From positions 49,361 to 87,784 of the forward strand of contig CAJNYD010000075.1 in the NCBI GenBank assembly GCA_905331295.1: 38,424 nucleotides of DNA. Reading direction: 5' to 3'. Position numbers and translations under genes: made by a program. This stretch comes from Rotaria socialis. Taxonomy: Eukaryota. A model generated the notes under the pieces. The model searched no databases, was not told where the DNA came from, and saw nothing but the letters and a program-made list of their open reading frames with translations. Below, piece by piece: positions 3,990 to 37,965 of the stretch; position 1 is the first letter of the stretch, and each line of letters opens with the position of its first letter.

Positions 3990-4561
3990 CTAAAATGGAA
4001 CAATATTTTAGAAAGAATTGAGCTTACAGGTTACTGCTTTTAAAATATAATTGAACTTTCTATTTTTTGTTTCCGCATGATTAAAACTGAGCCTGGCTTT
4101 AGGATTTACGTATAACTGCGTTGAGTGCTATTGTTAAAAATCGTATAAGCTCGTGCTAGAATCTTCATAGTATTCAAATAGAAAGATGCAGTGTTAGGAT
4201 TTCTTCCATATAAAATTCCGTTTATTTTACATAGTCAAGTATCAATAAGACATTGGATATCTTCTCGGGCCGTAGGTCTTCATAAACTAGCCTGCATCTC
4301 GGGAAAAATACAAATGAACAACATGAAACGGATAACTACAGTTTCATGTGAAGTACACAAGTTACCTAACAGCAACGTGACGGTGTATTCATCTAAAAAA
4401 ACTAGGCTTCGAACTCAGTCATATATTGCAGCGATAATGTAGAATGATTTTACAGAAATGACTATTGAGATACACTGTATATAAATTTTAATTCGAATGC
4501 TCATAATAGCATTTTAATGATGGATAATTTATTAAAATCAATATTATAATGTTTATAATAG

Positions 4562-8005: not shown

Positions 8006-8746
8006 ATGAAGTGGGTATACGTTTACAGAAAACCTACAGATACAGGTCTATATCTTAGATGGACTAGTAATCAACCTCGTAATTATAAAATTAATTTAAT
8101 TAAGTGTCTATGTACTCGTGCGAAAAGAATATGTTCATCTGATTATCTCTTCAAACAAGAATTAGAATATTATAAGAGCATTTTCATCACGAATGGTTAT
8201 CCTATTAATGTCATTAAGAAAACTATACATAGTATTGAATTAAGTATTACAAAGAAAAAAACAATTCAGAATACACAAAAAATATTCATTTCAGTTCCTT
8301 ATTATGGTGAATGTTCCTTAGCATTAGCCAATAAGATTAGAAAAATCATCCAAAATCCTACAGTTAATGTCATTTTTGGATTTAAAGCTGGCAATCGAAT
8401 TTCCTCATTATTCAGTAAAACATTCCGTGGAACTAATGATAACAAAAGAATAGTGTATGGTTATTCATGTTATGATTATAAAGGATATTATATAAGTCAG
8501 ACAGCAAGAGATGCTGAAGTTCGTCAAGAAGAGCATAAAAATGCCTTTAACGGCAACGGTTATTCCAAAATAGCTGAACATTGTCTTAATAACAAACATC
8601 GTAACAATTGGAATACTGATATTTTAACCATTGAATCTAATGATTTAAAAAGGAATATAAAAGAAAGCTTACTCATGTATTGGTATAGTAAAAAGAAGGA
8701 CAAACAAGTGTACTCACAAAAGAGCTTCGTTTTAAATGTGTTCTGA
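8006..8746 (+). pseudogene. PLE RT-thumb/GIY-YIG ORF remnant (246 aa)
   Basis: Motifs as above. The ORF begins inside the RT (YRKPT), so it is a truncated copy. Confidence 0.75.
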
Positions 8747-12183: not shown

Positions 12184-15100
12184 ATGAATTTGGTTATGAA
12201 TAAGCGAGCATCGAAACGGCCTACATCTACGGTAGGTTCAGTGGTGCCATCACGCAAGGAACTAACTATTCAATCGTCGGGAAAAACTCAGTATATTGCG
12301 TCTTTGCCTCAACAACGTATCTGGCTACATGAACGACTCCATTTTAGCAATTCTGAATTGTCTGTCTATAATATAGTGTTGCCCATAATCGTGAAGCGCG
12401 GCTCATTAGCAATAGAATATATTCGTTCACGTTTACTTCGAATAATAGAGGAAAATACAGTACTTCGCACTGCTGTTCGTTTTAACTTGGAACGAAATCA
12501 AATCGAACAATACATAGAGCCCCTTTCTGACAATCTCTATTCATTTGAAAATTCACGTGGTATTGCCACATCGGAGCAAATCGATCACATTCTTACGAGA
12601 GAATCTGTTGGAAAATATTTTGATCTTGAAAAGGGAAGAGTCTTAAGATGTCATATAATACAACGAAGTGAAGACAAACAAGATCAATTCTTACACAAAG
12701 GAGATCTTGTTGCAATTACGTTTCATCATATTGCATTTGACAACAGTTCACTAAAACCATTTATCAAAGCATTTGAAAGAGTATGCAAAACTGATTATCA
12801 TCAACAATCAGTGTCGCCAATGCCTCAATATATTGATTTCACATTGTATGAACAGGCAATGTTAAACGATCCAAGTGCTGATTCAAAAATGAACAAAGCA
12901 CGTCGGTTTTGGTTGGAAACCATGCGGGGTTACGATTGGAATAAAAGACGCAGCTTGATGCCTGAAGAAGATAAAGTTGATCGCATCCAATCTGGTAAAG
13001 GTTATGCAACTGCATTTGACTTCGACCAAAATATTGTCGATGCGATGATGCTATACGCATCGTCCAACAACGTCACTATGTTTTCATTGACATTAGCCTG
13101 TTATTATGTATTTCTATTCAAATTGACTAACAGTGAAGAAGATTTGTGCGTAGCGAGCGTAACAGCTAATCGACCTCTACAGGAAATGGCAGACATGATT
13201 GGTATGTTTGTTAACATTTTGCCCTATCGAATCAAAGTTGAACCGCATAAATCATTTTATGATCTCCTTGAGAAAGTACAAAAACTGAGCAGCGATGTTT
13301 TGGAGCATGGCTCTTTACCTTATCAGGAAATTATGAATTTAGACCGCAAACAAGAATATCATGCACTACCTTCAGCATTATTTCAGTATGAATCACTAGT
13401 ATCATCATTGACACAGAAAAGTAGTATAGAAGTAGCTGTCGGCAAAAATTCTAGTCTTGGTGTTTACTTTGATCGCGACCGATCGCATGGTAATGGAGTA
13501 GCAGCATTCGATTTGACTCTTACAATATCACATAACCATCATGCAAAAACTACAGAGTGTTTTATTGATTGTTCGGCCGATGTGTTTAAAAATCAAACGA
13601 ATGTTGAGATGGTGGGAAATCGTTTTCGACATATGCTTTTCGAACTCTTCTGCTCTCCGATGACTCATGAGCCAATTTATAAATTATCGATTATTATTCC
13701 AAGTGAACAAGAGGTGATGCATCAATTAAACAATACAAAGTCGCTGGTATCTTATCCATGGTCATTCGCTATACATGAAAGATTCGCTCGACAAGCTCAA
13801 TTATATCCACAAAAAATAGTTCTCGAATTGGATCAACAATCACTTACGTATAGTGAACTCCTTCATTATGTACGACGTCTCACAATTCATTTAAGTCAAA
13901 GAGTTCAAAAAGATGAAATTGTATGTCAATGCGTTGAAAGATCAATCGAAATGGTTATCGGATTATTAGCAATTTTGTCAAGCGGTGTAGCTTATTGCCC
14001 TTTAGCACCTGCAGATCCACCTACAAGGCTGGCAACTCTGGTTCGAGACACACGAGCAAAGACAATTCTTGTTCATAGTTACACTTCGGGAACGTTGGTT
14101 GTAGCTGATACATCGTGTGATCTCATTAAAACAGACTCATTTCTTATCTCCGACGAAGAGGAAAAAGATGGTGATGATGATCTCAAACCTATTCTGGTCA
14201 CACCAAACAAAACTGCTTATATTATTTTCACAAGTGGAACAACTGGTACTCCTAAAGCTGTTGTTATTTCACATTCTAGTTTGATCTATTATCTTCAATC
14301 GTCAGTTGAGATTGATGCTCTGCGTACAAGTGATAAGGGAGTACAATTATCTTCATGTACATGGGATGTTCATATTCATGAAATACTTGGCACTTTATTT
14401 GTGGGTGGATCAATTGTACTCTTACGATCTGAACAGGGCAATCGTAATATGGATTATTTGGCTCGTGTTATCGAATCTCATCAGGTTACCTTCGTTTGCA
14501 TCGTCCCAACATTGCAAATTTTACTTTTTGATATCCTCGAAGTACAGCAAGCTTTTCATAGACTCAATACTCTTCGACTAGTGTGGTCCGTAGGTAAGCA
14601 GTATTATCAATTTTCCTTGATATAGCATTCATTTTTTGTACGCGTCTCGCTAGGTGAACCAATACCATCATATTTGGTCGCTCGAATTTTACCTTTATTA
14701 CCAGCGAGCTGTAAATATGTCAATTTTGGTGGTGCTACAGAAGGAACTGTAGTGCAAACTTTTCACACAGTTACAGAAAATGATGCTCATTCATTATCAG
14801 GTAGTGTTCCACTCGGCAGGCCAATGCCGTACTTTAAGTTGCACATTCTTGACAAATTTCATCAATCTGTACCTGTGGGATATACAGGCGAGCTTTATAC
14901 TAGTGGAGCAATTATGAGTGGTTATCTAAATCGACCCGATCTCAATGCCAAGGTATTGATTCAACTAACAGATGAATCTGGCAAAAGTTATAAAACAGGA
15001 GATTTAGCTCGATTCTTACCATTGAGCGGTGAAGTTCAATTGTTGGGTCGCGAAGATTCTCAAACAAAATTTAATGGACAACGAGTAGAATTAGGAGAAA

Positions 15101-18100
15101 TCGAAGCAGTCATGTACCGGTCAAGTGCTGCTATCTGCAACTGTGCTGTAATTAAGATGACTGAAAACGGGCGTGATCATCTGGTTGCCTACATACAACC
15201 AAGTACGACCGATACAGCAGTATTGTTCGATGCAAAACAAGTTCGTGCTTTCTGTGAAAAGAACTTATCACAATGGATGGTTCCATCTCATTTCATTGTT
15301 GTGCATCAATTACCAATAAATTCTAATGGAAAGTTAGATCGGGCAGCACTTCTTAAACCTGATTTGTCGCCACTACCTGAATATGTTGACAATAGTGATG
15401 AATATCGAGAAGATGAGCCACCAATGACAGTCGAACAGAACCGTGTACACAATATATGGTGTCATATATTAAAAATTGGTGATAAAAAAAAGATTCCTAT
15501 CAATAGTTCATTCTTCTCAATGGGTGGCAACTCCTTGACTATGATGCGTCTCTATTCAGAATATCAAAAGTCATTTCAGTGCAATTCACAATGTCCATCA
15601 TTCAATATTGCCTGTTTATTTCGTCAATCAACAATTGCACAACATGCTTTAATTTTGCAACAATGGTTCCATGATGCTTCTCAGAATGAAGACGTGCAAC
15701 AAAATCAGAAGCAGAACGAAGTTTGGCGAACTCTAAATATTTTGGAAGGTAACACCACTTAAAAGTTATGTTCATCTGCTAGTCATATAAAATACTCCAA
15801 TGTTCTACGTTGCTCAACTAAATATTTTCTTTCTTTATCGGTGAATGAGGCCTAATTTTTGATTTTTCTAAATATCAAATAATTCTATGGTTAGAATTTA
15901 TACATTAATCTACTACACATGATGACACTCAATAACGGAGTGTCAGAGCCCGACGTTTCGCAATCTAATTATTAGTGTTTCAAACATATTGACCAGTCAA
16001 AAAATAAATATGAATATGATGCCTTAGTCCGTATCTGAATGTGTACCTCACAATTTTCGAGACACTTATTGATCAGTTTTAACGTTTTTTACAGTGCCGT
16101 TTAGATTAAAATCGAGTTATATATACTTAACTCTAGTGAACTGCTGAAAATCAAACTAGCGATACAGCCATACTCTATAATCTTTTCTAATATCACTCGT
16201 GAAAGTTCTCTATAATACATTTCAATACGTTTTCGTAGTATATTCAGATATTTCCATCGATAGATCAAATTATATGCTCCCTGTATACGCTTATAAATGT
16301 TGATGATATTTGCCATGAATGAAGTTGTCTTTTTGTAAAAAAAACAACAACACGAAGAAACTGTTTATCATGGAGCATAATAATCTAATAGTAGAAAGTA
16401 ACATTACTGCATTAGCTGAGGAAACTATTGAATTCTACTATTGCAAATGTATCAATTTTTATTTTTTAGCTGAAGCATCGCATGCTCAACAGCGTATTTT
16501 TCTGGATCAGTTAGTACGATTTTCAGATGATACAGCTTTATACAACGTTCCATTGATTTACCGTGTTCAATCTGATAATAATATTGGCGGAATTTCTTTC
16601 GATCGTTTACGTCGAGCCATAAACTCTGTGATTGTTAAACATGTCATACTTCGAACATCTTTACACTTAGACAATATTACTGGTCTTTTAACTCAACGTA
16701 TTGAAAAATTTGACGATCTCAAAGAACAATACAAGTTTTGTGTTAGTCGTTTCGAAAACGGCGAACAAATGACTGCTATTTTGAACCATGAAATAAAAAG
16801 TCCAGAATTGTTTGATCTTTCACGTGGAATTGTTTTGCGTTGCCACGTTGTCATCGCTGCTTGTAACAAAAGCTTTATCAATGAGACGGAACGAAATACT
16901 CTACAACTAGGTGATATTCTTGTTTTCAATCTTCACCATATTGCTTTTGATGGTGCATCACGACGAATATTCTTTCGTGACCTCAAATGTGCTTTTGAAA
17001 ACGATGTTCCATTGCCACTGGATGAAAATTCATTGCAATACATCGATTACTCAGTGCTCGAAGGAAAATTGGACATGATACCATCGCGTGACTTCTGGCG
17101 TTCGCAACTTGTAGGATTTGACTTCGAACGGCGTCTTTCACTACCCTTTGATCGATACCATTCGTTGACTGAGAATCGATCGGGTCTCGCACATTTAGTT
17201 GAGTTTCACTTCGATGAAGATTTGTCAAATGCTTTTCTAGAATATGCTTCTGATCATGGCGTTACACCATTTCAATTAGGTCTCGCCACATTTTATGTAT
17301 TTTTATTCAAATTAAGCAATAACGAAAGTGATCTATGTACATCTTGTATTCATGCCAATCGCTACAGGGCAGAGCTAGCAGATTTAATTGGTATGTTTGT
17401 TGCTACATTACCACATCGAATTCAGCTTGATCCCAACGTATCTTTCGATGAACTTGTCAAGAGAGTTGGAAGTCAGTTTTTTTCAATTATTGAGCATACA
17501 TATTATCCGCTGCAACGCATACTTGCTGATTCGGATCACAAGCAATCTTCTGCAGGTTTTCTCCAGATATTATTTGATTTTATAACATACTCAAATGAAG
17601 TTGATTTGGTATCGATAAGCAACACACAATTCGAGTCAGTATCATTGGAAAGAATGGAGAACGTTGTCAAATTTGATTTAAAATTGCTATTTTTCTATGA
17701 TCCAGCAGGTGGCAAAACAATATCGTGTTCTTTGATATGTTCACGAGACGTCTTTGATTTGACAACAGTAGAAAATTTAGCCACGCAATTTCACCATATT
17801 CTTTTTCAATTATTTGCCGGACGCAAAACAGCAACATCATTTAATGATCAAGTTCGCGAACCAATATCACAATTATCTCTGATTTTACCCGAAAAATCTC
17901 AAGTATTACAACGAACGACATTCCACCACCTGTCGAATATTGACAAGCAAGGTATGAATGTTATCAGAATCTTTTGTCAAATATAATTATGAGCATGTAT
18001 TGAAGACTATAGCGAAGTAATGACTCATATCACATTAGTTTTTCTTTCTGATTGAGCAGAATATTTTCAAATACTGTTCTTGATGCTTCATCACAGATCA

Positions 18101-21100
18101 TCCATTATGATTGTCGTGAACATTTTTCGACCACGAATATATATGCTTCTTGATGTTTCATATGTTTAGTCTCATCATTATTTCAGTGAAGTCTTTTTAT
18201 AGTTATCGTGTGTTACATTTTTTTTAAAGACTTTCCATCACTGTTAAACGATGAATACTCAAGGAAATTGAATCAGCATTCGTCTTTTCTTCTATAGTTT
18301 CTGAATCATATGTTTTATATCTTTGATACATGTATCGATTCGCAATAGCGTTATTGTAATCCATGAAAATAACTATCGCCTTAAATTTCGTTGAGCTTTA
18401 TTTGTATCACAAGTAAAGATATATATACGTTTTCTTTAGCTCCCGCTTCATATGCACAATGCCGTATTTGGCGCAAAGAACAAATGTGTCATGCCAGTAA
18501 TCAAATACAAATGGCAGTTAACAATATGCCTTTTGTATATCGGTTGTCATCGGGTGGTATTCTACCTTTGTATTTATTTCGTCGAGCTTTACAACTCATC
18601 GTTATAAAACATGAGTCATTGCGTACAGCCTTGGTTTTCGACACCAATGAAAAGATTTTAATGCAACAAATTATCGATGTGTCTGATGATCAGGAACAAT
18701 TGTTTGCCATCACAGAAAGTATTTTTCAAACAGAAGAAGAATACAATCATATCTTGAATGACGAACGAAATAATGTAAATCATTTCGATCTTGTTCAAGG
18801 TCGTGTATTTCGTTGTCACGTTGTCTACCACAACAAAATTACTCATGATGGGCATATTACTAATCAGGACACAATTATTTTTAATTTTCATCGTGCTGTC
18901 TTTGATTTGTTTTCGATAAATTTATTTCAGCGTGAGTTCGAACAGGCTTATGTAACAGGTGAACTTATATCGAATGATTCTACAACTGTACGTTACATCG
19001 ATTGTAAGTTTAAATTTTTATTTGACGAATCTGATTCACTCTATACTTTCTTAAGATGCTGTTTCTGAACGGCAAATGTCAATGAATGCTGCTAGTCAAT
19101 TTTGGATTGATGCACTTCAAGATTGTGAAATCGATCGACAATTATCTTTACCTTTTGATCACCGTCGAATTTCTACTGATAAGCGAACTAAACAAATCGC
19201 TTCTGCTTCATTTGAATTTGGTGATCATCTTTCTCATGACTTTTTAGCTTATGCTAGAGAAAAAGAAATCACTCCAAAACATCTAGGCCTTGCTTTAAAT
19301 TTTCTCTTCTTGTTCGGCTTGACAAATGGTGAACGAGACTTATGCATTGGAATGGAAACTGATGTTCGTTATAAATCGGAACTTAAATCTATCATTGGTA
19401 CGTTTGTTAACAGAATTCCATTACGATGTCGATTCGATCCTAATTGGTCATTCGTTCAACTCGTTGAATATGTTCATGAAATAGCGACAGTTAGCGCTGA
19501 ATACTCTTACTATCCGCTTGAACGCATCCTTGCTCAATACTCTCAAGGATTACAAGCAGCATTTCTCGACATCTCTTTTGAATTTGACTCGCTCATGTCT
19601 GAAAGTGAAAGCAATCAAATAGTAGTTGACGACCTACGCATTACTATGTTACCGTATGATGCAGCTACCAATACAGGTAAATTGCCGAATGACATTGACT
19701 TTACTTTGAAAATACAACATGACAGGATCACTAATAAATTATCATGTTCGACTGATGGATCACTTGATTTATTCGATACAGTGACTATTACAAAAATTTC
19801 TCAGCGATTTCATTTATTGATACAACAATTGTTTCAGTCTCAAATCAATTATTCTAACAAACCACTTTACGAATTATCGTTAATACTTCCAGACGAGCAT
19901 TTATTAATTAAATCGTTGAGTAACAATCAAATTTGCTCTTCTCCTGATTGGTGTGTCCACCATCAGATTAGTCATTGTGCAAGCAATCATCCACAAAAAG
20001 TAGCTGTTGAATTAGATGAACAGTCTTTGACATACAGTGAACTACTTTATTATTCTCAATGGCTTGCTCTCAAATTGTTGACAGAGTTTCATGTAAAACC
20101 TGGTGATGTCATTTGTCAATGTGTTGAACGTAGTTTGTCTATGGTAATTATATTGAGACGATACTTATTCCAATTATATGATGGATAATTTTTATCTTTA
20201 GGTCATTGGTATTTTGTCTATTGTAACGACAGGTGGTGCCTATTGTCCATTGTCGTCGTTAGATCCCACACAACGTCGACAAACACTTGTCAATCAAACA
20301 CATAGCCATTTAGTTCTTGTTCATTCTAATACGCATGCTAACGTTGGAGTCAACGTAGCCACATTAGATATTGATGCAGCTATAAACTCCGATGAAGTGT
20401 TTGCTGGTATAAAATTGAATTCACTTTTAAATGTATCTGTAACACCAGAAAATATTGCATTCGTAATTTTTACGAGTGGCTCAACTGGAGTTCCAAAAGC
20501 GGTTCGTTCATTTACTTATTTTACTAAGTGTGAATTGGAAGAACTTTTCTTATTAGGCTCAGTTGCGTCATCGAAACTTTACTGAATTTATCTGCTCATT
20601 TGTTCATGCTGGCATAATCTCGAAACTCGACACAATTATACAAATGGCTCGTTGTACTTTTGATAATCACCTTTTGAGTCTTGTTGGAACATTAGTTGCA
20701 GGAGGTACTCTAGTGATGCTTCGACCTGAAGGCAACATGGATTTTGAATATCTTGCTGGAGTACTTGATAAAAAACAAGTCACGGTTATGCATAGTGTTC
20801 CATCTTTACTTCGTGGAATATTTACTTTTCTCAAAGAAAATAATCTTAAATCATCAGCGAAATGGCTACGATGCCTATGTAGTGGTGGTCAGTAAATTGT
20901 TTTAAGACTCCTTGACACATATATGAACTTATATTTTTATTGATTTCTTGTAGGAGAAACTCTTAGCTTCAAGACAGCTAGTCTCATGAAAAGCCAGGTT
21001 AAAGAAACATGTTGGGTTCGAAATCAATACGGTCCAGCGGAATTAACCATAAATTGTGCGTCGAATTTGATTCGCTTGAGTGAAGATCAATCGAACATTC

Positions 21101-24100
21101 CAATCGGTCGGCTCCTTCCCAATTTTTACTGCCTCATTTTGGATGAATACTTGCAGCCTATTTGCATAGGACATGAAGGTGAACTACTCGTCGGAGGAGT
21201 TGGTGTTTTTGCTGGGTACTTCGGTCGTGAGGACTTAACATCGAGAGCATTGATCAACATAGATGGTAAAATGGTTTATAGAACAGGTGATCTTGCTCGA
21301 ATAGACAGACATGGATTGATTCACTACATAAGTCGAAAAGATCATCAAGTAAAGTTGCATGGGCAGCGCATTGAATTAGGCGAAATTGAAAGGTGTTTGC
21401 TAGGAACTGCGATTGCTGCATGTGTTGTTACCAAATGGGGAGATGATCACTTGATCGCTTATGTTCAAAGTTCTAAAGTGAGCGCAAAGCAGTTACGTGA
21501 ACATTGTCAATCTCATCTGCCACCATTCATGGTTCCATCATTGTTCATCGTACTCGAAAAGTTTCCATTGAATGTTAATGGTAAAGTAGATCGGAAGTGT
21601 CTGCCTCCACCTGATTTCACACTGCTATTATCATCGGCATCAATAACAAGTGAACAAGATCACAATAATCCGAGCAATGAATATGAATTAAGTATACACT
21701 CACTTTGGTGCGAACTGTTACATCGCCCTTCCATTTCCAAAGTCGAAAGTATCTTCAGTATTGGTGGACATTCTCTTCTTCTAATACAACTTTATCAACG
21801 TTACAAGACAATATTCGGTTTTAATACTCATATTCTTAATATAGCTAAATTCTTCCAATATCCTACGATTGTTGAGCATGCTCGTTTGATCAGTAAATCA
21901 ATCGACAAGGATAATGATAGCGAAATGTCTTGGCATTCATTACATCTAGTCGAAGGTATGTTCAATCATAAAATGAAAAGGAAACATTATGCTTAGATAT
22001 TTGTTTTCTTTTCATAGCTCCCTTATCGTTTGCTCAAGAACGCATCATGTTCGACGAACATCTTCGTTTCTCTACGAAGCGCAATACAATGTATACAATA
22101 TTAATGGCATATCGTATTCAAAATGTTGGTAGCACTATTTCAATGGCACGATTTCATCGAGCACTTAAAGCAATGCTGATCAAACATAAAGTTTTACGTA
22201 CAGTAATATCGTCGGATATGACTGGAACTTTCAAACAATCTGTAATTGATATGACTGACTACCACGATGATCACCGTATTTATGGAGTTACTACACTGAA
22301 TATGAGCGATGATGAGAACATCAAAAGTCTTTATGATAGAATTGATCATTCAGAAATGTTTGATTTGGCAAAAGGTCGTGTTTTACACTGTTATATTCTC
22401 CGGAATCATCGTAATTTGTCACTTAATACAGATCTGTTGACTGATGGTGATGCTTTTATACTTGCTGTTCATCATTCCATATTTGATGGTTTCTCAACGC
22501 CAAATTTTCTTATTGACTTGTGTCTTGCCTATGAAACTGATGCACCCTCACCTATTGACAACGATACATTACAATATATTGACTATTCTGTTCATGAACG
22601 ACTTATCAGCATGGAAAAATTGCGCGACTTTTGGCATTTACAACTGAATGGATACGATTTGGCACGACCTTTACCATTACCATTTGATCGCCATCGGGCA
22701 GCAGGTGATGAACGATCGGGCTTGTCTTGTATTGCTGAGTTTTCATTTGGTGAAGATTTATCGCGAGCTTTTCTTGATTATGCTTCTTCACGCCACGTGA
22801 CATCGTTTCAGTTAGGCCTTGCCAGTTTTTATGCTTTTCTGTTCAAATTGTGTAACAATGAAAGCGATTTGTGCGTTGCCGGCATAAGCGCAAACCGATA
22901 TCGACTGGAATTAAGAGATCTTATCGGTATGTTCGTCACTACTCTACCTTATCGCATTCAAATCAATTCAAACGGTTCTTTTGATAAACTTGTCGAACAA
23001 GTTTCCAATTGTTGCCTATCGGTTCTTGAACATTCTCAATATCCTCTACAACATATAATTGTTGATTCGCATAATCAAAAATCAAGTGCTGCATTCCTTG
23101 AGACTGTATTCGACTACATCACAATAGCTCCGAAGATTAATCAACTGTCTCTCGGTAAGACACAAATTCAACGAATGGTAGCTCTACAAGCAGATACTGT
23201 TGCTAAATTCGATTTTTTGTGTACATTCGTTGAGAACCCTTCTGCAACAGATAATATTATGTCCTGTTCGTTCGTATGCTCACAAGATTTATTTGATCAG
23301 ACCAAAGTAGAAACAATAGCTAGGCGCTTTCAACAACTTCTTACGCAGATATTTTCCTCCAAATCAATGTTTGACCGAACTGTGGAACCAATCTATAATC
23401 TATCTGTTATACTACCTGAAGAATTGGAAGAAATGCAACGCATGGTTTTTCATCGTGTTTTGAATGTTACCCATGAAGGTATGTCTTCAATCTACTGATT
23501 ATATACTTTTAGGTATTGCTAATTGCAAGATATTCAGCATGATAAGAGTTTTCTTGAAAAAACTTTTCTTTGAATAATCTGACATTCGACTGATTTGATC
23601 CAAATTTGCGAGCAGACAGAGATCTAAGAATTAATCGGATCAATAAAATCAAATATTCTAACTTAAAACATAAAACAGTTTCAAATTTTGAATTGTTCAT
23701 CGGAAAATCACGCTGTTTTAAATGAGTTAATACGGATCTTTCAAAAGTTATTTAAAGCTCTGAATATTTGGTATCATTAAAACTAAATTCTCTCATAAGT
23801 TATTATCATAATAGTTTCAGTATTTTACTTGTAAGAATTCATTGGAGCTATTTAATTTGTATTGCACTGCCAGTAGGTTTTTATTTGAATATTTATCTAT
23901 TAAATTTTTAATCATGATCTACTGCCTCTAAAATGTTTGATGCACTATATTATATCATAAAATCTTCTGTTCAGCACCTGCCTCCTATGCTCAAGCTCGT
24001 ATTTGGCTCGATGAACGAATTCGTTTCGATTCTGAGAAGTCAAAAGTAGCTATATACAATCTGCCTTTTCTCCATCGAGTTGCATCAGGAGATACTCTGT

Positions 24101-27100
24101 CGATTACAAAGCTTCGTAAAGCTCTACAACTTGTAGTAATGAAACATGTCATACTTCGTACATCACTCTATTTTGATACTGATAAAAATATATTGATGCA
24201 ACGCATTATGGATCCGAATGACAGCGAAGAATTTTTCTCATTCATCGAAAGTACCTTCGAAACCGATGAAGATCTCAACACAATTATGCACAATGAACGT
24301 GGCAATCCACATAATTTTAATCTATCAAACGGGCTCGTCTGTCGATGTCATGTTGTCTATCACAAATCAATTTCTAAAAAAAGGATTTTATGTGCAAAAG
24401 ATGCACTTATTTTCAACTTTCATCATGCTTCATTTGACTTTCCATCAATGGCCGTTTTCCGACGTGACCTAGACCAAGCGTACACCACAGGTCATTTGAC
24501 AAGTGACGATGACACAAATTTACGTTATCTTGATTGTATGTTAACTGCCTTTTTTTAGAATATTACACTAACATTCTTTTAAATGTTATTTTTTTTAAAG
24601 ATGCAATTACTGAGCAGCAAATGTCTATGGTAGCTGCTAGTGCTTTTTGGCGTGATGTACTTCATGACTGTGAACTCGATCGACCTTTGCCTTTACCGTT
24701 TGATCGACTTCGTGTTTCAGATGAATCTCGTACAGGCCGTGGAGCATCGGTCACTTTTCAGTTTGGTCAAAATCTTTCACAAGCATTCATTACCTATGCT
24801 TCAACACATGATTTAAAACTTGAGCATTTAGCACTTGCAGTGTATTACATCTTTCTATTCAAGTTAACAAATGGTGAAACAGACATATGTTTAGTCATGA
24901 ACACTCATGGTCGCTACAAACCTGAGTTAATGGCAGTTATTGGAATGTTTGTTAATGCAATTCCAATGAGATGTAGATTTGATCCGAATTATTCTTTTTC
25001 TCAATTTGTACAACACGTGCAAACAGTGATGATGAACAACTTAGAACATTCTTATTTTCCTCTTCAACATATTCTTGCTCAACATCCACTTGTCTCTCGT
25101 CCAGCATTTCTAGACACATTTTTTGGATTCGTCTCTTTTCCAGACGTAAATAGTCGCAGCACAGTGTCAATTGGAGGTGTTAAAATTGTAACCATGCCTT
25201 ATTCAATCAGAGTCAGCACACATGAGATTGCAAGCAAATATGACTTTTCGTTAAATATACATCATGATTCCGCGACTAATGATCTGTCATACGCAATCGA
25301 AGCATCCCTTGACTTATTCACCGCATCGACAGTAAATACTATCGGAAAACGATTTCATGCAATGCTTGAACAACTTTTTGAATCGAACATGACTCATCGA
25401 GTACCACAATCGATCTACGGATTGTCGATAATCTTACCTGATGACACAACACTTATTGAATCTATCAAAAACACACAATTAGTATTTCCTCCTCCTCAAT
25501 GTATGCATCACAATTTTATGCATCGAGTCATTGAAGACCCACAGAAGTTGGCAGTTGAACTTGATGGACAGTCTCTCACCTATAGTGAACTATTATTCTA
25601 TACACAGCGATTAGCTCTTCATCTGTTGACTAGAAGCAATTTCAGATCTGGTGACATCGTTTGTCAATGTATGGAGCGTAGTATTTCAATGGTGAGTTAT
25701 CTTGAAACGAAGCATTCGTTTTTATTTAGTTTTGTATGCTAGGTTATGGGTATCTTATCCATTTTAATGGCCGGTGGTTTATATTGTCCACTATCTCCTC
25801 GAGATTCTGGTCAACATCTTGAATCCCTTATTTCACAAACTCACAGTAGTTTGATTCTAGTGGACTTGTTGACAAAAGATAAGTTTAAACATAATGATAA
25901 AGCCCTCAGCATTGATCTAGCAATCAACAACAATGAACATATCAATGAACATCATCTTGATCAACTGTCAAATGTCAAAGTAACGCCAGAAAGTGTCGCT
26001 TATGTGATCTTTACTAGTGGTTCAACAGGCACACCGAAAGCGGTCTGTTTATTTTTAAAAAATGTACCTAATGACTTTCTATTGATGGTATTTTTCTTCT
26101 AGGCTCAAGTGCGACATAAAAATTTCACCGGCTGCATTCGATCTCTCGTTCACATTGGCGTATTTGATAAGGCAGATACTATTGTTCAGATGGCTCGTTG
26201 TTCATTTGATATTCATATGCAAGACATTATGGGCACATTAGTTGTCGGTGCATCACTAGTCATGCTCCGTCCAAGAGGAAATATGGATTTCGAATATTTA
26301 GCAGCAGTCATCAAGAATAAAAAAATCACATTGATGCATGCTGTACCAAGTCTTTTGAGTAGTTTTTCAAATTTTCTAGAAGAGCGCAATTGTCGTTCCG
26401 TTATGGACACTGTGCACACATTGTGTAGTAGTGGTCAGTTAACTCACGTCATTAAATTTTAGTGATAGAAATATTCTATTGTATATTTTTAGGAGAAGCT
26501 TTGACTGTTCGAGTAGCTCGCATGCTAAATTCTACTATGCCATCGACATGCAAAATTTGGGATTTGTATGGTCCAGCCGAGTGCACACTGATATCAACAT
26601 ATCATTGTGTCGATACAACATTAGACATTGTAAATATTCCTATCGGTCGACCACTTCCAAACTATCAATGTCTGATTATCGATGATTTCTCACAATTAGT
26701 TTATGCTGGTCAAAATGGTGAATTACTTGTTGGTGGTGTTGGTGTCTTCGATAGTTATTTGAATCGTGATGATTTAACGGCAAAAGCATTAGTGATAATT
26801 GACGAAAACATATTTTATCGAACAGGAGATCTTGTTCGAATAAATAGTCATGGCCTGATAGATTATCTTGGTCGAAAAGATCATCAAGTAAAAGTTCGTG
26901 GGCAACGTATTGAGTTAAGCGAAATTGAGCACTGTTTGCTTGATACTTCCATATCTGCATGTGTCGTCATAAAATGGTCCGATGAGCATTTAATTGCTTA
27001 TGTTCAAGGCTACAATATCGATCAGGAAAAATTACGTGAGCATTGCCGCTCTCATCTTGCTTCATTCATGGTACCATCAATGTTCATTGCACTAGAACAA

Positions 27101-30100
27101 TTTCCATTAAATGCAAATGGTAAATTACATCGACAACGTCTACCCAAACCGAACTTTTCTTCGTTAACTAAAGTAACAGAAGAAGCACTTATTGTTCCGT
27201 GTTCACCGATCGAAGAAAGAGTTCTTTCTGTATGGTGTGAAATTCTTCATTGTGACCATGGTAAAATTTCAACTGCGTCAAACTTCTTCAGTATTGGCGG
27301 TCATTCGCTATTGTTCATTCAACTTTATCACCGGTATCAATCATTATTTTGTTTTAGCAATGAATTACTTCCAATTACGATGTTTCTTAACCAGACAACG
27401 ATCAGTGAACATGCAAAGTTACTTGAGTCAGTCAAAAATATTGACAAGGATGGAACAATATGGCAGTCACTCCATTTAATTGACGGTATCGCATCTTTCG
27501 CACAAGAACGAATCTATCTTGACGAACAAGTACGATTCAACGATGGTGTATCAGTATACAATGAGTTGACAGCTTTAAGACTGAAAAGTGGTTCCCTATC
27601 TAAAGCTCGTCTTCAACGAGCTATTCGATCGGTATTAAAAAGACACCAGGTGCTTCGTACTCGACTTATTCTCGATACTGATCAAGGCACACTAACACAA
27701 TACGTCACTTGCAATCATTCAATGTTTAAATTTGATATTGTAAACACATTCAAAAGCGATACCGAGCTGGATTCGATATTGTTCCAAGTAAAGAACAATC
27801 CTAATCTTTTTGACTTGTCCAATGGGCACGTCTTTCATTGTCAAGTTGTTTGCCAGAACTCGAATGACCGATTTACTTATGATGATCTTATCGGTGAATC
27901 AGATGTGCTAGTATTTGCTTTTCATCATGCAGCATTTGACCGAACTTCTCGTCAAATTTTCTTTAATGACTTGAATAGTGTATATGAAGAAGATAAGCCT
28001 TTTCCAGACAATGAAGACGCATTTCAATATATTGACTATGCTGTACATGAGCGTCATATGGACATGACATCGGCTAATAAGTTTTGGCATTCACAACTTG
28101 ATGGATTTAATACGGAGCGTCAGCTAGCATTTTCAATGGACCGATATCGCTTGACTAACGACGACCGGTCTGGTTTTACCGTTATTAATCAATTTCCCTT
28201 GGATGATCAATTATCTCAATCGTTTATTAATTATGCTTCTGTACATGAAGTTACGCCATTTCAACTTGGCCTTGCTTTGTTTTATGCATTCACGTTCAAA
28301 CTAGCGAATGGACTAGCTGACTTGTGTGTTGCTTGTACTAGTGCTAATCGATACAGATCAGAACTGCAAAATTTGATAGGCATGTTTGTTGCTACTCTTC
28401 CATATCGTATAGAAGTCGATTCGAATGGCTCTTTCGATCAACTTGTTCAACAAGTTCGAGAGCAGTGTTTTTCAGTTATTGAACACTCGCATTACCCTCT
28501 TCAAAATATTCTCGCTGATTTACATCATCTACAATCGACAGCTAACTTTCTTGAAATTGCATACGACTTTGTTACTCTTGCTCGAGATGATGAAAATTTA
28601 GAATGCTGCGGCTCAAATTTTCAAATTGTCTCATCTCAACAAATGGATGATGTAGCTAAGTTCGACTGGTTATTAACATTTGTTCACGATCAATCAGCAG
28701 TTCACAATCCAATATCGGTTGCCTTGATTTGCTCGAGAGATCTTTTTGATCAGAATACTGTAAATACATTAGGTGCTCGATTTATGTTACTAATACAGGA
28801 TATATTTGGTTCTAATCCTTCTTTTGATACCAGACAACCACTCTATCAGCTTTCAATCATTTTACCAAATGAATTCTTAGTAATCGATCAACTGATGTAC
28901 AAAGACAAGACACAAAAAACAACAGCAGACAATATTGTTGGGGATTTATTTTGTCAAGAAGCTGAAAAATATGCGCAAAAAATTGCCGTTGCTCTCGATG
29001 AGCAATCCATAACATACAATGAATTACTTTTCTATGTTCAACAGCTCGCTGCTCAGTTGATCAATGAATACGACGTTCAACCAGGCGAAATTATTTGTCA
29101 ATGCATGGAAAGAACGTTATCGATAGTATATTTATTTGAAAATTATTCTTTTGAATATGAAAACTTCAAATTTCTTTACTATTTAGGTCATTGGCTTAAT
29201 GTCAATTCAAATAACTGGTGCTGTATACTGTCCACTATCACCACAAGATCCACAGAAACGTCTAGGAAATCTTATTGAACAAACACGAACTCGTTTCATT
29301 CTCATTCATTCAATGACAAATAATGTATTTGACAAGAGTAATCTTACATTTGATATTGATACAATTGTGAGCGCTGATGCAACAGTCAGTGATGACGATC
29401 TTCGTCGACTTTCGCAAATATCAGTGACTCCAGATAGTATATCATACGTTGTTTTTACAAGTGGCTCAACTGGAACACCAAAAGCGGTTCGTTTAAAATG
29501 ATCTACTTTTATCTTAAAAATCATTCATTTATATATGTATATTTAGGTTCAAGTTCGGCATCGGAATGTAACGAATTATACTCAATCTATCGTTGAAATT
29601 GGTGCATTCAATAATAATGATAACGTCGCACAAATGGCTGGTTGTTCATTCGATATGCATATTCAGGACATTATCAGTACGTTAATTAGTGGTGGCAGTT
29701 TGATCATGCTACATCCTCAAGGAAACACAGATTTGGCATATTTCGTTGATCAACTCATGGAAAAAGAGGTCACTTTCATGGATTCTGTACCAAGTTATCT
29801 CGGTACGCTGAGCCAATATCTCGAAACTCAAAGAGGTGGTCAATGTTTGGAAAAATTACGATCCGTATGCAGCGGAGGTTAGTCTATTCAAATCAAATCA
29901 GCTTTCAGAAAAATAGCTAGATATCATCTCGTCTTTTAGGTGAAAACCTGACTACTCAGATTATAACTCATTTAAAGAAATATGTAGCTCCTTCGTCATC
30001 ATCATCGCCCGGGTGTCAGTTATGGAATTTATACGGACCAGCAGAAGCGACCATTGGTTCGACATATTTTTGTATAGATTTTGATTTTAGTGAAAAAGTG

Positions 30101-33100
30101 ATCCCGATCGGACGACCACTACCCAATTATGAATGTTTGATTCTGGATGAATTTTCACAAAAAGTTATCCTCGGCCAAGAAGGCGAACTATTCATTGGTG
30201 GTGTGGGCATTTTTTCTGGCTATCTCGGCCGTGCTGATCTGACGGCAAAAATGCTTCTCGAAATTGATAACAAAGTTTTTTATCGTACTGGTGATCTTAT
30301 CCGATATGATCAACATGGACTTCTGTATTATATTAGTCGAAAAGATTATCAAGTTAAACTACGAGGACAACGAATTGAACTATCAGAAATCGAGCGATGT
30401 GTTTTTAGTGCATCTGCATTCGTAAAGGGTTGTACCGTCATTAAATGGCTCGATGAGCATTTGATTGCGTATGTTCAATGTAATGATATCGACGAGGGAC
30501 TACTACGCAATTATTGTCGCTCTCATCTTCCACACTACATGGTGCCGTCCAAGTTTATTCTTATGGAACGATTTCCTTTGAATGTAAATGGAAAACTAGA
30601 TCGCCATCGTCTTCCAGCGCCTGAATTTTCCTCAGTAACTAAAAGCCATCATGATGACGTACCACTCACTCCACTAGAGCAGCAACTACAGGACATTTTT
30701 AGTCAAGCTTTTCAATTAAAAGCTCCAAATGTTGAAGCTGCTTTCGGTCAACTCGGAGGTACATCGTTAAATGCAATGCTTGCTCTAACACTTATTCGTC
30801 AACAAATATCTACTAAAGTTGATATTAGTCTAATATTTGCTAATCCATCTATCCGACAATTGGCTCGAGCAATCGAGTCATCTGTGCTTATTGAGAAATC
30901 ATCATATACACCTCTCACAATGAAACAGGAACAAGAAACAACTGTGCACCTTGAGCCATCATTACTTATAGAATCTGTAGGAACTATAGTTCTCATTTGT
31001 CAATGGCTGTGGCCAATCATAATACTGGGTCAACGGTGTTCATCTCTTCTCGTCACCGTACCTCTAATTCATCTGATGTTCTATGCTATTTGCTCGAATC
31101 TACTCTCATCGAAAATTGAGAAAACCGATAATATGTTCTCATCGAGTTATTATCGATGGTGGTTTTTGGAACGTCTCTGGAGTAACAATACATATTGGCT
31201 ACGATACTTGATTGGAACACCATTTTACAATTATTATCTGCGCCTTTGTGGCGCTCGAATTGGTCTTGGCACACATATTTACACAACAATTATCGATGCT
31301 CCATGGTTATTAGATATTGACAATGGAGTTTGGATTGCTGATTATACTTGTCTGAATTGTTTATCATTCAATGTTCGTGACATTTTTCAACTCCATTCAA
31401 TAAAAATAGGTTCTGGTTGCTCGATTGGTACACGATCGATTTTGTTTGATGGAGTCGATATGCAAGAAAATATTATAGCTCAACCAATGTCACGAATTAC
31501 AGGTTTTATTGCATCTCAAACGGTAATCGATGGCGATGAACATAAATCTCTCTCATCGGACACATTCATTACAGACTGTAATAGACCACTATCAATATGG
31601 CAAAAAATCTACCAAGCTATTGCACTCTTCTTATTGATCTGTATTCATTCGATACTTTTAATCATTTTCTATAAAATGCATGCATTCATACAATTACCAC
31701 TACCCGTAGGAATTGCATTTTGTTGGGTCCTATGGTCAATTAGTAGTTTTTCGATTTGTTTGATTCTCCTCAAATTTGTTGTAGGTTCTTGTAGTGCAAA
31801 TGAAACATACTCAATCGCATCATGGAAATACTTACATAAATTGTGGCTTCGTCAGTTAATAGTCTCAAGTTTTTATCATGCATTGTTACTACCAGCTAGT
31901 TATGATTACATATACCCTTGTGTTCTGCGTTGGTTAAATGCACACGTTGGAGATAATGTCAAAATAAGTGAAATAGATACTTTTCTGTCCTTTCCAACAA
32001 ACTTATTAAAAATTGAAACGGGAGTTACTACATTTGGTTCAGTCTTAATGGTTCCTACTGAATTGGCAATGTCAGGATACCATCGTGTAGATTGCATAAC
32101 GCTTGGAACCTATACAAATTTTGGTAATGGATGCTCGATTTTACCAGGAAGCCATCTTGCATCAGAATCAATGGTTGGTAATTTAACACGTGTCTCTCGA
32201 GAAACAGATTATAATGAGGGAAAGATTCTTATCGGTGTTCCAGCTCGTTCAATGCCATTTTCAATGCCACCAAGATCCGATACGATGAACCAGATTGAAG
32301 TCATCCCATTTTGGCATACATGTCTTACCCTTTGTATCAGCAAATGTATTCTTTTGTGGATTTACTTGACAGTGGGTCTCATTGGTGGACCAATAATCCA
32401 CACAACACTTGTTTGTTGTTTCTATCGTTGGCGCTCATATGTACGTAATCAAACGTTGAAACATGTGTTAATAAAATTGTGGAGAGATCATCAACTTTTT
32501 ATCTGTTCATTTCTCGGTAACTCACAATGGTTAGTTCAGGTATTTCGAGCATTTGGCGCACATATTGGCAAGAATGTAATATTACCAGACTTTTCCTGTC
32601 TCACTGATTATGACTTAGTAAGCATTGGCGATAATGTTCGATTTAATACCTATGCCAGTATTCAGGTAATATATGTCTATCAAATTCCTTTTACTCTCTC
32701 TAAGAATGTTCTAAAAAATTATTTTAGTGTCACAGTTTTGAACAACGAATTCATAAACTAGCCAATGTCACCATAGGCGATGGATCAGTGCTCATGAGTG
32801 GTTCATTTGTATTAGCCGGCTGCAAACTGATGGGTAATAATAGACTCTATCCATATACAATGGTGATGAAAAATGATCAACTGCCACTAAACACCAATTG
32901 GAAAGGAGTTCCAGCAAGTAAGTCAATTAGCGGTTGATAGAATTTCTTCAAAAAATACTACAAAAGTTGTATGACAAGTGCTATATTCGCTCATCTTTTC
33001 ATTTGCATTCAGCATAGATGCAGTTTATTATTTTTGAAATGTGAAAGTTTAAAATATCAGATATGATGGCAGGTGCTTTTTACTAGACACGGGGAAACTA

Positions 33101-35381
33101 AAAGCTTGTTTCAGAGAATAAACCAATCAGATTTATACTAGTCTATATTTGTCACAGTTTTAATGTTGAATAATTACGCAAGATTTTCATGTAGACACAA
33201 ATTCTAGTTTTTACATTAGATTTTTCAAATGACTATTATTGTCACGTCATGAGAAAGTTTCACGTTCATACAATAGTCGGAAAAAAAAGAATGAAAGTTT
33301 CTTATTTCTTTTTCTTTTCTTTTCAAATCTGTACTCTTTTATTCGATTCTTGCTAAAAGTGTCACTGATCATCAAAAATGATTGCATGAAATAATTTAAT
33401 ATATTGAAATTTGTTTTTCATAGGATATGTATCTGAAAATGCACACACAACTTCGTCTGTAATAGTTAGTGATAATTCCATTGAACACGAACAAACATAT
33501 GAAAAATCTGATGAATTAACCATGCGGTACGAATGGATTGCAAGCACTTATGCCAACACCGATGATGTACAATTTATGAATTGCGGTTACGCAGATTTAG
33601 ATCAGAATGGAGATAATAAAACTGCTAACTATTCGACAAAACTTTATGAACAAGTAATTTATAGAAAACAAAAAGAATTAACTCTTACAGTACTGCGTAT
33701 AGGATACATCGGAAACATTAGATAGTGTCCAGTTTTGGTCCAAACTGATAAGGAAACTAAGTAATGTTTTTATATGACGAGGAGATGTTGAAACACAGAT
33801 ATTTTAAATCATTAGTTTACTGTGATTAATTATGAGGAACTTAATATTCAAAAATGATTCAAATCTACCCGTTTATACATAATCTACAGGGTCTCATAAA
33901 GTGGCAATATTAGTCCATCCAACACCGATGAACACTAGTAACGTTGAACTTCTTGATAACATCTTGCAGCTTACATAAATGTGTTATTTCATTTTTTTCC
34001 AATCAAAAGAGCACTTATTGTCAAATTCAATTATATCGCTCTTAACCTCATGACTCAACAAATAGCCTGAACAGTGATAACCTTCCTGGATCTTGAAACT
34101 ATTTTCTACATTTGTTTAAATACCAAACTTAGCTAATTATTTAAAATTTTACTGTTTGTAAACTGTAATATGAGCTTCACCCAAAAATATTCACAATATT
34201 TTAAAGAAAAAAAAGATTAACTATCGTAGTATACACGAGCAATGAGTATGATTTTGCTTCTTTAAAACTTTTTATTAGCCATTTAATGATGATTGCTGTT
34301 CATTCTAGTTACGAAAATATTCACAGAGAGTGTTTAATGTTTCCGAGAAAAAGACCTCTATCTCTTGCTATGCGTATGGCATGCTGTTCCTTGTAGGCTC
34401 GATGTAGAATTTGCATTACTTTTTTAGCACTAACCATTTCGAAGAAGATAACAAGGAATTTAGATCAGTGATTACTAGTACCAGTTATATTCTTAAATAA
34501 GCTGATTGGTAGAAAAAAGGTTTTGAAGAGGTCTTAAAAACTGAAAAGTAATTGCAAGTTTTTCCAAATGTCAAAATTAAGGACCCATTTTCCATAGAAA
34601 TACACATTCAATTGATATGACGCGTATTTAGGATGTATCCTAAGCGTAATTGTTCTGTCTTCATTGACTTTTGTTCGACGTACATATTTAACTAGAGCTG
34701 CCTTGAAATGTAACAGATAGAGTAGTAGCCATAACTACATTTTATTTTTCATTTTAGATTCTTGCCAATTTACCGCTTAAAAATATGAGTGTACTTGAAC
34801 TGAGCTGTGGTATAGGTAATGGTGCTGCCTGGTATGCTAGCACACATGCACCTCGCTCTTATATTGGAATGGATCGCTCTCGTGCGTTTATTGACCTGTG
34901 TAAACGAACCCATTCAGCAATTCCTAGACTTTCTTTCATACAAGCTGATGCAACAAAACATTTACCATTTGAAAATGAATCAATGGATATAGTTTTCTGT
35001 GTTGAAGCAACACATGCTTACGGTGGACCGGCAGTAATCAAAAATTTTGCCGCTGAAGTTGCTCGTGTACTACGTCCCAATGGTTGCTTTTTGTGGTGTG
35101 ACTTGTGTGATATGGATGGATCACGTGCGTCAATCACTCATCTGACATCAAACGGAGAATTCATTGTCGAACAAGAGATCAATATTACACCTAATGTTTT
35201 GCATGCACTTGACATACAGAGCAAGTCTCGCGCTAACATCATCGAACGCATTGTGCGACCTATAGAACAAGACGATTTTCACCAGTTAGCTGGAATACCC
35301 GGCACTAAAATTTATGAGGACATGCGTGAAGGACGCACTCAGTACTGGCGAGTAGTATTGCGCAAGAAAACAAGTAGTTGA
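12184..35381 (+). CDS. Four-module NRPS (C-A-T-C-C-A-T-C-C-A-T-C-A-T) with a Pls/PosA-type membrane terminal domain and C-terminal SAM methyltransferase; 20 exons, about 6349 aa
   Basis: Exons: 12184-14593, 14654-15748, 16470-17951, 18440-19003, 19056-20143, 20202-20501, 20557-20887, 20954-21955, 22018-23478, 23975-24535, 24601-25691, 25743-26042, 26103-26433, 26493-29125, 29187-29486, 29547-29877, 29940-32665, 32728-32917, 33424-33653, 34758-35381 (sum 19050 nt). All introns are GT-AG and frame-preserving, and splicing restores split motifs (SVGEP, YIDYA, SMVIG, PKAAQ, SGGE, QCHSFEQR). The start ATG at 12184 and the junction to the last two exons are less certain; the alternative stop is TGA 32935-32937. 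Confidence 0.85.
12290..15670 (+). other. NRPS module 1: N-terminal C domain, A domain, T domain
   Basis: C: SLPQQRIW, FHHIAFDN, IGMFVNILP. A: FTSGTTGTPKA, WDVH, GELY, YKTGDL, GQRVELGEIE, NGKLDR. T: FFSMGGNSL. Boundaries are approximate. Confidence 0.9.
16470..21900 (+). other. NRPS module 2: C-C-A-T
   Basis: C2 LHHIAFDGAS; C3 FHRAVFDL; A FTSGSTGVPKA, YGPAE, YRTGDL, NGKVDR; T FSIGGHSL. Confidence 0.9.
22018..27440 (+). other. NRPS module 3: C-C-A-T
   Basis: C4 VHHSIFDGFS; C5 FHHASFDFPS; A FTSGSTGTPKA, YGPAE, YRTGDL, NGKLHR; T FFSIGGHSL. Confidence 0.9.
27490..30880 (+). other. NRPS module 4: C-A-T
   Basis: C6 SFAQERI, FHHAAFDRTS; A FTSGSTGTPKA, NLYGPAE, YRTGDL, NGKLDR; T FGQLGGTSL. Confidence 0.9.
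30950..32917 (+). other. Pls/PosA-type NRPS terminal domain (three repeats of TM hairpin plus hexapeptide beta-helix)
   Basis: Three units each follow hydrophobic stretches: YYRWWFLERL...GTPFYNYYLRLCGARIG; YLHKLWLRQL...VLRWLNAHVGDNVKI...LIGVPA; FLGNSQWLVQVFRAFGAHIGKNV...DYDLVSIGD...QCHSFEQR...MVMKNDQLPLNTNWKGVPA. This is the layout of the epsilon-poly-L-lysine synthetase C-terminus. Confidence 0.8.
33424..35381 (+). CDS. Class I SAM methyltransferase resembling mycobacterial phthiotriol dimycocerosate or fatty-acid O-methyltransferases (Rv2952 type); exons 33424-33653 and 34758-35381
   Basis: FMNCGYAD...LYEQ|ILAN...VLELSCGIGNGA...SYIGMD...ADATKHLPFENESMDIVFCVEATHAY...AEVARVLRPNG...EINITPNVLHAL...GIPGTKIY...YWR. 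Phase-0 intron 33654-34757; AATAAA at 35457-35462. Either fused to the NRPS or a separate gene starting at ATG 33522. Confidence 0.8.
33700..34642. mobile_element. Possible decayed DNA transposon inside the last intron
   Basis: 11-bp inverted termini TAGGATACATC (33700-33710) and GATGTATCCTA (34632-34642), with flanks TGCGTA/AGCGTA. This intron (1104 nt) is the longest in the gene. Confidence 0.3.
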
Positions 35382-37850: not shown

Positions 37851-37965
37851 GAATCCATGAATCCATGAATCCATTTGAATCCACTTGGATCCACTTGAAT
37901 CCACTTGAATCCACTTGAATCCACTTGAATCCACTTGAATCCACTTGAATCCACTTGAATCCACT
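37851..37965. repeat. 10-bp tandem repeat (GAATCCACTT)n, about 10 copies plus two 8-bp variants
   Basis: Read directly from the sequence; preceded by CAAGGGGGGAACAG at 37835. It accounts for the spurious repetitive minus-strand ORFs. Confidence 0.95.

Follow-up and report, generated by a model that had tools for sequence, protein, structure and literature searches.

A stretch of Rotaria socialis DNA (38,424 nucleotides of contig CAJNYD010000075.1, hereafter the window) contains scattered open reading frames that an earlier note, made from the letters alone, had read as a four-module non-ribosomal peptide synthetase (NRPS) closed by a Pls-type membrane terminal domain (TD) and a methyltransferase (MT). 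This raises the question of whether these parts belong to a single animal gene and, if so, how a peptide would leave an assembly line that ends in a domain known only as a homopolymerase. Pls-type enzymes have been described as single-module proteins (PMC4668381, PMC8949500), and all characterized TD-bearing enzymes are polymerases in the available sections of PMC10522769 and PMC4668381.

Results

The locus encodes one spliced NRPS gene

Joining 20 exons on the forward strand, from the ATG at 12184 to the stop at 35379-35381, yields 19,050 nt encoding 6349 amino acids with a single, terminal stop, and all 19 predicted introns are of the GT-AG type; the scattered frames thus do splice into the one frame of about 6349 residues proposed in the earlier note. 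Retention of any single intron introduces an extra stop in 15 of the 19 cases and shifts the frame in the other four. GC content is 38% in the exons and 16-35% in the introns. The N-terminus can be aligned with three Adineta steineri models that have the same start, and a tblastn search of the window with all homologues found no further exons, the only one of 2268 matches that lay mostly outside the exons being an extension of exon 18.

Pfam and NCBIfam profile scans gave the domain order C-A-T-C-C-A-T-C-C-A-T-C-A-T (C, condensation; A, adenylation; T, carrier), followed by a TIGR02353-type TD and a class I MT; the Pfam scan reported six C, four A and four T domains, Hexapep and a methyltransferase. 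The four modules, the Pls-type membrane end and the MT of the earlier account are therefore correct, but its C domains number six rather than four, two tandem C-C pairs having to be added. Neither set of scans found a thioesterase (TE), reductase (R) or terminal C domain, T4 being followed by the TD and the MT. The features are as follows (X11 and X13 are introduced below).

12184-35381, +, whole gene, 20 exons, 6349 aa (splicing, domain scans)
14594-14653, 15749-16469, 17952-18439, 19004-19055, 20144-20201, 20502-20556, 20888-20953, +, introns 1-7
21956-22017, 23479-23974, 24536-24600, 25692-25742, 26043-26102, 26434-26492, +, introns 8-13
29126-29186, 29487-29546, 29878-29939, 32666-32727, 32918-33423, 33654-34757, +, introns 14-19
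12286-13659, +, C1, N-terminal condensation domain, both His and the Asp intact (Pfam, C-domain tree)
13771-15663, +, A1 and T1 (T1 Ser codon 15532)
16470-19834, +, tandem C2 (post-T type, motif intact) and C3 (pre-A type), C2-C3 junction spliced in X11
19952-21897, +, A2 and T2 (T2 Ser codon 21772)
22018-25382, +, tandem C4 (post-T type) and C5 (pre-A type), each with two His and the Asp, T2-C4 spliced in X11
25503-27430, +, A3 and T3 (T3 Ser codon 27305)
27485-30883, +, C6, A4 and T4 (T4 Ser codon 30764), all three A4 introns spliced in X11
30947-32916, +, Pls-type TD, three hydrophobic helix segments, each followed by a left-handed beta-helix, His6004 at 32731-32733
33424-33521, +, TD-MT linker, 33 aa, start of exon 19, conserved in homologues
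33522-35378, +, class I SAM methyltransferase, intron 33654-34757 spliced in X11
34756-35435, +, short transcript, rotifer spliced leader on the last-exon acceptor (X13), first in-frame ATG at 34785, which would give a 198-aa MT core

Intron sites fall at the same codons across modules 2-4, three such sites being common to A2, A3 and A4. The [C-A-T-C] blocks at 18440-23478 and 23975-28810 resemble a duplication and have intron sites in common.

The host is a bdelloid rotifer and the gene is not a contaminant. A microbial origin of the contig, a possibility that the earlier note had raised, was checked and is contradicted by the 19 introns, by an intron-split, animal-type SLC52 riboflavin transporter gene that is the upstream neighbour (4536-6788, +; Pfam), by the rotifer spliced leader described below and by the position of the TD within a bdelloid group (support 100). 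The leader indicates a bdelloid host because it matches a rotifer leader reported in bdelloids and, in the available part of PMC1925144, not in a monogonont. DNA run X3, possibly the source, covers the gene evenly. Elsewhere in the window, a 261-aa frame (7961-8743, +) has only a weak DUF2192 match in Pfam, and we take it to resemble the C-terminal part of a Penelope-like retroelement (reverse transcriptase tail and GIY-YIG-like end); tandem arrays lie at 37858-37965 (11 copies of a 10-bp unit) and 2483-2542 (a looser 10/30-bp array), and Rfam gave no match.

Transcripts from a close relative

RNA evidence came in the form of contigs, from which neither expression level nor strand can be read. 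In X11, a wastewater metatranscriptome that holds a relative of the host, mostly 90-99% alike, rather than the host itself, 10 of 18 introns are skipped in the RNA contigs (the stretch compared was 15600-35500, intron 1 lying outside it). The introns spliced include those at C2-C3 and T2-C4, all three in A4 and the MT intron at 33654-34757. In X11, splicing was not seen for the introns at 15749, 20502, 20888, 23479, 24536, 26434, 32666 and 32918, and no RNA contig was found that spanned T1-C2, C4-C5 or TD-MT. For the TD-MT intron (32918-33423) no contig was found at either 88% or 80% likeness, a neutral result as cover is only 2-5 deep; its donor at 32918, GT-AAGT, is strong. T3, C6 and the N-terminal part of A4 lie within one exon, and the C-terminal part of A4, T4 and the TD within another. 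Because of these shared exons and the A4 introns spliced in X11, DNA and RNA jointly support the joining of a classical module to the TD. Over 32560-33760 in pond DNA run X9, the seven listed indels and an 83-nt deletion all fall inside predicted introns, and among the best 12 of 23 rows over a long stretch the sole exonic indel is of 3 nt.

A contig from a further run, X13 (organism A), which was classed as RNA by guess, corresponds to 34756-35435 with 0 differences and carries 20 upstream letters that are absent from the window. Together with the AG at 34756-34757 these supply 22 letters of the 23-letter rotifer spliced leader (PMC3795323, Table 1), and because of this match a transcript composed of the leader and exon 20 exists, a form known from one contig. 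The exon 20 acceptor is used in two ways, by the trans-spliced leader (X13) and by cis-splicing from exon 19 (X11). The acceptor of the longest intron likely gives rise to the leader-plus-exon-20 transcript as a by-product, since the Met at 34785 is absent from 51 of 51 homologues and the conserved exon-19 motif is missing from this form. The proposal of a single-gene product therefore stands in that there is one frame, with 10 of 18 introns spliced in the relative, but there is in addition a spliced-leader transcript that comprises the last exon alone. The architecture observed, that of a spliced bdelloid gene, is confirmed as real.

Condensation, adenylation and carrier domains

The T-domain Ser is present in all four modules (residues 1097, 2697, 4277 and 5369), as are the A4-motif Asp and the A10 Lys in all four A domains, which agrees with the earlier reading, and the repeated C-A-T modules have their core residues intact save in C3, in which Arg replaces the second (catalytic) His. 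A comparison of 56 C domains distinguished three bdelloid types, protein-initial (C1), post-T (C2, C4 and C6) and pre-A (C3 and C5). The clade of C1 contains exclusively protein-initial C domains, and C1 clusters with LCL-like domains in a tree that has no starter reference; C1 likely acylates or accepts an upstream unit. Post-T domains have a T domain directly upstream in 10 of 15 cases, the remaining rows beginning a fragment, while pre-A domains (n=27) always precede an A domain, never follow a T domain and retain the second His in 24. The proposal that pre-A domains are dead as a class was rejected on the latter count (24 of 27), and the proposal that post-T domains are epimerases was rejected by eye, given motifs that we take to be LCL-like and the location of C6 immediately upstream of A4. 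Tandem C-C pairs, made of two distinct C lineages, are a general feature of bdelloid NRPSs (C-domain tree).

Substrate pockets were read only in A domains of at least 380 aa and counted by eye. In a tree of 46 of 123 A domains, those that come last in bdelloid proteins group with internal NRPS A domains and away from the A domains of Pls. Position 3 of the pocket carries an acidic residue in 44 of 45 single-module proteins from outside the bdelloids versus 11 of 50 bdelloid-type last A domains, the other 39 lacking the acidic diamino-acid residue at that position. Two pockets carry a Cys-type code. The read-out recovers the published PosA code on the homologue P0147 (code from the available part of PMC10522769). 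In A4, position 3 is Gln5023, the equivalent of PosA Glu221, a residue reported to be essential (PMC10522769); the next position is Asp5062, and A4, keeping this Asp, might still take a basic residue. The best solved relative of A1 is LgrA module 2, a weak lead on its substrate.

The TD has a predicted acyltransferase fold

TIGR02353, the profile that the earlier note had named as a check, matches both of the last two TD exons (116.8 and 50.8 bits) but stays under its cut-off of 423.1, as does the whole homologue P0088 (162.2 bits). The TD is about 90 aa shorter than that of the Pls family. Hydropathy indicates three membrane helix pairs, the third weaker. The model of the exon-17 part of the TD (583 aa; pLDDT 92.7, pTM 0.92) consists of long helix segments and beta-helices, and all three beta-helices are present in the model of P0088, the MT part of which is poor. 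The fold neighbours are left-handed beta-helix CoA- or ACP-dependent N- and O-acyltransferases (best Z 13.1, rmsd 2.9, 124 residues aligned), and the TD is predicted to be a membrane-anchored beta-helix acyltransferase. The PosA TD has been modelled with a similar acyltransferase-like fold, the structure of the Pls terminal domain being unsolved as of 2023 (PMC10522769, available part); a search of PDB sequences with the TD returned nothing real.

A lone His conserved in 80 of 81 non-bdelloid TDs, mostly Pls-like, corresponds to His6004; among 80 bdelloid-type TDs its equivalent occurs in 67, and the other 13 mostly end or enter an intron at that point; we infer a catalytic role for this residue from its conservation. 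Asn5823, several Arg and the single His motif are kept across Adineta and Rotaria. A bdelloid-specific loss of the acidic channel is unsupported, as the positions conserved outside bdelloids that are lost include 12 of 16 acidic ones and, equally, 14 of 24 basic ones; bdelloid TDs have 17 acidic positions of their own.

The join between the TD and the MT

The linker aligns with a gap of at most one residue in 13 homologues, the X9 pond relative has no indel there, and the spacing between TD and MT is identical in 37 of the 43 homologues that have an MT after the TD. Conservation of the linker supports a genuine TD-MT fusion, the homologues being gene models. Met6099 and Met6152 are unconserved (0 of 13 and 0 of 51 homologues, respectively). 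The best profiles for the MT, read from the last exon, are the phthiotriol-type NF045823 (128.8 against a cut-off of 300) and the Mtf2 fatty-acid O-methyltransferase NF045825 (107.5 against 400); whole homologue MTs score 134.8 and 109.6, likewise far under these family cut-offs. Judged by these profiles the MT likely O-methylates the product. Fmt, which we equate with Mtf2, offers a precedent. It methoxylates the acyl chain of mycobacterial glycopeptidolipid (PMC8928063, available part). Two A. steineri models, P0081 and P0090, carry the same MT after a T domain with no TD between, which suggests that the MT is a mobile tail; P0081 also has a thioesterase Pfam match.

Distribution of the family

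A search with the TD gave 75 matches (proteins of 1022-2915 aa), 72 of them bdelloid-type and three single-module Pls-like at 21-27% identity. The former comprise 51 from A. steineri, a count inflated by isolates, alleles and fragments, four from A. vaga, five from A. ricciae, seven from Rotaria and five further proteins in the same group. Among the 75, a C domain lies upstream in 45; the TD is followed by an MT in 43, is the end of the protein in 25 and has another tail in seven, which in five of these seven includes a PF01564 spermine synthase-like domain. In a tree of 42 of 166 TDs, 16 bdelloid-type TDs form one group (SH-aLRT 100). The sequence comparisons indicate that the gene is not unique and is a member of an Adineta/Rotaria family.

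Five bdelloid paralogues (P0064, P0065, P0067, P0069 and P0072) have a spermidine-synthase-like domain after the TD in place of the MT. Pocket position 3 is acidic in all four of the last A domains read from these paralogues, so that polyamines or basic substrates may be used by this branch.

Nor is a Pls-type end on a multimodular NRPS peculiar to this gene or to rotifers. Among the best 150 of 656 matches in a whole-library search there are two non-rotifer multimodular proteins that end in the TD. One, P0187 (6612 aa, five modules), is labelled Siphonaria sp. JEL0065, and one source flags possible contamination; the other, P0132 (3171 aa), has the order formyltransferase-A-T-C-A-T-TD. The TD of P0132 adjoins the bdelloid group (99, with a long-branch warning), as does its last A domain (94), and the NRPS-TD arrangement may therefore be older than its presence in rotifers. 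No close relative of P0132 turned up in a scan of bacterial and archaeal genomes, and a search of long proteins with its TD returned only itself and one fungal protein. Scans of metagenome loci with the TD alignment and with a window exon found no relative, and a plasmid search gave one ordinary Pls (22.8%). Three single-module Pls-like proteins, P0178, P0209 and P0186, are fused to an ODP metallo-beta-lactamase fold, a DUF418 and an N-terminal methyltransferase, respectively.

Discussion

The introns, the rotifer leader and the TD model support the earlier picture of a domesticated, spliced, membrane-anchored bdelloid assembly line with a fused MT. On balance, we think it probable that the TD, without polymerizing the peptide, releases it through acyl transfer to an amine or hydroxyl acceptor, and that the fused MT likely O-methylates the product. 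In such a scheme C1 would, from its position and intact motif, place an acyl group or an upstream unit on residue 1 as a cap, and A1-A4, in which the domains and core residues are observed, would load four monomers onto T1-T4. C2, C4 and C6, each downstream of a T domain, would form the bonds, the pre-A domains C3 and C5 being additional to these. T4 would then present its thioester to the predicted beta-helix pseudo-trimer, with His6004 as the candidate base, and the MT, going by its profile matches, would add its methyl group either to a free carboxyl or to a hydroxyl of the acyl chain. One would expect as product a short, amphiphilic peptide of at most four residues, close to the membrane and putatively defensive. 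Of the three outcomes that the earlier note had left side by side (release, ligation and polymerization), the first two are favoured and the third is disfavoured, because most last A pockets lack an acidic position 3 and the A-domain tree does not derive the last A domains from Pls.

It could be argued that the TD still polymerizes, using a free amine to link short, finished peptide blocks into an oligomer or a heteropolymer of defined sequence. This is the sole activity demonstrated for the Pls family, the TD retains the fold, the three hydrophobic segments and the His, 11 of 50 last A domains do have an acidic position 3, and C1 could be idle. Against these points, 39 of the 50 last A pockets have no acidic residue at position 3, two pockets carry a Cys-type code, and the motif of C1 is intact. 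Relatives, moreover, start with formyl or PKS capping units, and for such capped proteins (the formyltransferase-led P0132 and the KS-AT-KR-led A. vaga cluster 6.7) head-to-tail polymerization is impossible. We thus regard polymerization by this gene as unlikely. The Pls enzyme itself is able to terminate chains on alcohols (PMC8506220, available part).

Rather improbable, too, is a thioesterase-like TD that cyclizes the peptide onto its own amine or hydroxyl to give a cyclic lipopeptide. Such a reaction would need no outside acceptor in a protein from which TE, R and terminal C domains are all absent, and would suit a TD that closes NRPSs of very unlike length and composition (1330 to 20965 aa). 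The structural neighbours of the TD, however, are intermolecular transferases, and the spermidine-synthase-like tail of five homologues may hint at an outside amine acceptor.

We consider it very unlikely that NRPS-TD and MT are made separately, the latter from a trans-spliced mRNA of its own. The leader-bearing transcript of exon 20 (X13), the lack of RNA across 32918-33423, the unspliced TD frame, which stops cleanly a few codons past the TIGR02353 match, and the 25 of 75 homologues that end at the TD are all consistent with separation. They are outweighed by the conserved length and sequence of the linker, although the homologues are gene predictions, by the unconserved Met6099 and Met6152, by the absence of the conserved exon-19 motif from the short form, by the strong GT-AAGT donor at 32918 and by the cis-splicing of exon 19 to exon 20 in X11. 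Hardest to credit is a TD that acts only as a membrane anchor or export aid, release being left to hydrolysis or another enzyme, for although it is only 21-27% identical to single-module Pls-like proteins, far under the TIGR02353 cut-off and changed at many conserved positions, it keeps the single His motif, Asn5823, several Arg and the three beta-helices.

Release by acyl transfer, if extended to the family, leads to a broader proposal that we advance tentatively, as plausible but short of probable. The Pls TD would add to the general release domains of NRPSs, as an acyltransferase embedded in the membrane that ligates completed peptides to an acceptor. In bdelloids it would have undergone expansion into a combinatorial family whose A pockets are hypervariable, whose C domains stand in tandem and whose tails (O-methyltransferase or spermidine-synthase-like) are exchangeable. 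At its bold end, the proposal has the TD joining multi-residue blocks into sequence-defined peptide polymers. If true, the family would show a domain known only from homopolymer synthesis to be a general peptidyl transferase, and would open a route into the chemistry of animal-encoded NRPSs. As the TD ends about a third of the A. vaga biosynthetic clusters (14 of 40, from the available part of the source), product predictions based on thioesterase release would be wrong there, and the TD would be a possible engineering part for C-terminal ligation.

Comparison with known systems

We found no characterized multimodular NRPS ending in a Pls-type TD in the literature searched, mostly outside subscription journals; within that coverage, the earlier statement that no such enzyme is known holds. 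The combination of NRPS and TD (with AdoMet) has already been tabulated in one supplement, and no interpretation or test of it was found. Supplementary Data 9 of Nowell et al. 2024 has 15 rows with NRPS_term, which occurs in 14 of 40 A. vaga clusters and in one of them together with AdoMet, while the main text, as far as available, has 0 matches for 'terminal' or 'methyltransferase' (PMC11258130). No NRPS_term row could be assigned to the cluster induced by fungal attack. Metazoan Pls/PosA homologues are mentioned in passing in PMC10522769, the network of which was limited to 1100-1800 aa; the available text of its supplement has no match for Adineta or Rotaria, and its Supplementary Table 2 may name rotifers. 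Varied rotifer NRPS architectures have been noted, the Pls-type TD not being among them in the available part of PMC10531068. The closest tabulated case, A. vaga cluster 6.7 (PMC11258130, available part), is likewise multimodular, with LCL-type C domains that include tandem pairs and the entry 'NRPS_term; AdoMet', but it starts with KS-AT-KR and is of 11,508 aa, whereas the gene described here encodes a pure four-module NRPS.

The mycobacterial glycopeptidolipid pathway resembles the present scheme in making a short acylated NRPS peptide near the membrane, and the best MT profiles are of its Fmt/Mtf2 class, but the MT there is a separate protein and the scores here are below cut-off. The mycobacterial NRPS uses reductive release. 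Beta-helix acyltransferases (maltose and galactoside O-acetyltransferases, QdtC, AntD, LpxA and LpxD) have in common with the TD the fold, the His and a phosphopantetheine-thioester donor; they are soluble homotrimers, in contrast to the three repeats in one chain, the membrane helices and the one conserved His found here.

The Pls/PosA enzymes themselves (epsilon-poly-L-lysine synthetase, PosA and PDAP synthetase; TIGR02353) have the same succession of a T domain and a TD with three helix segments and three beta-helices, the conserved His motif of the third repeat and membrane anchoring (PMC10522769, available part). They consist, however, of a lone A-T, in contrast to the four modules, six C domains and fused MT of a spliced animal gene, the last A domain of which is not of Pls descent and lacks the Glu221 equivalent, and the TD of which is shorter and below the profile cut-off. 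Thus, the gene works like an NRPS with a Pls-derived end and is not a member of the Pls/PosA family.
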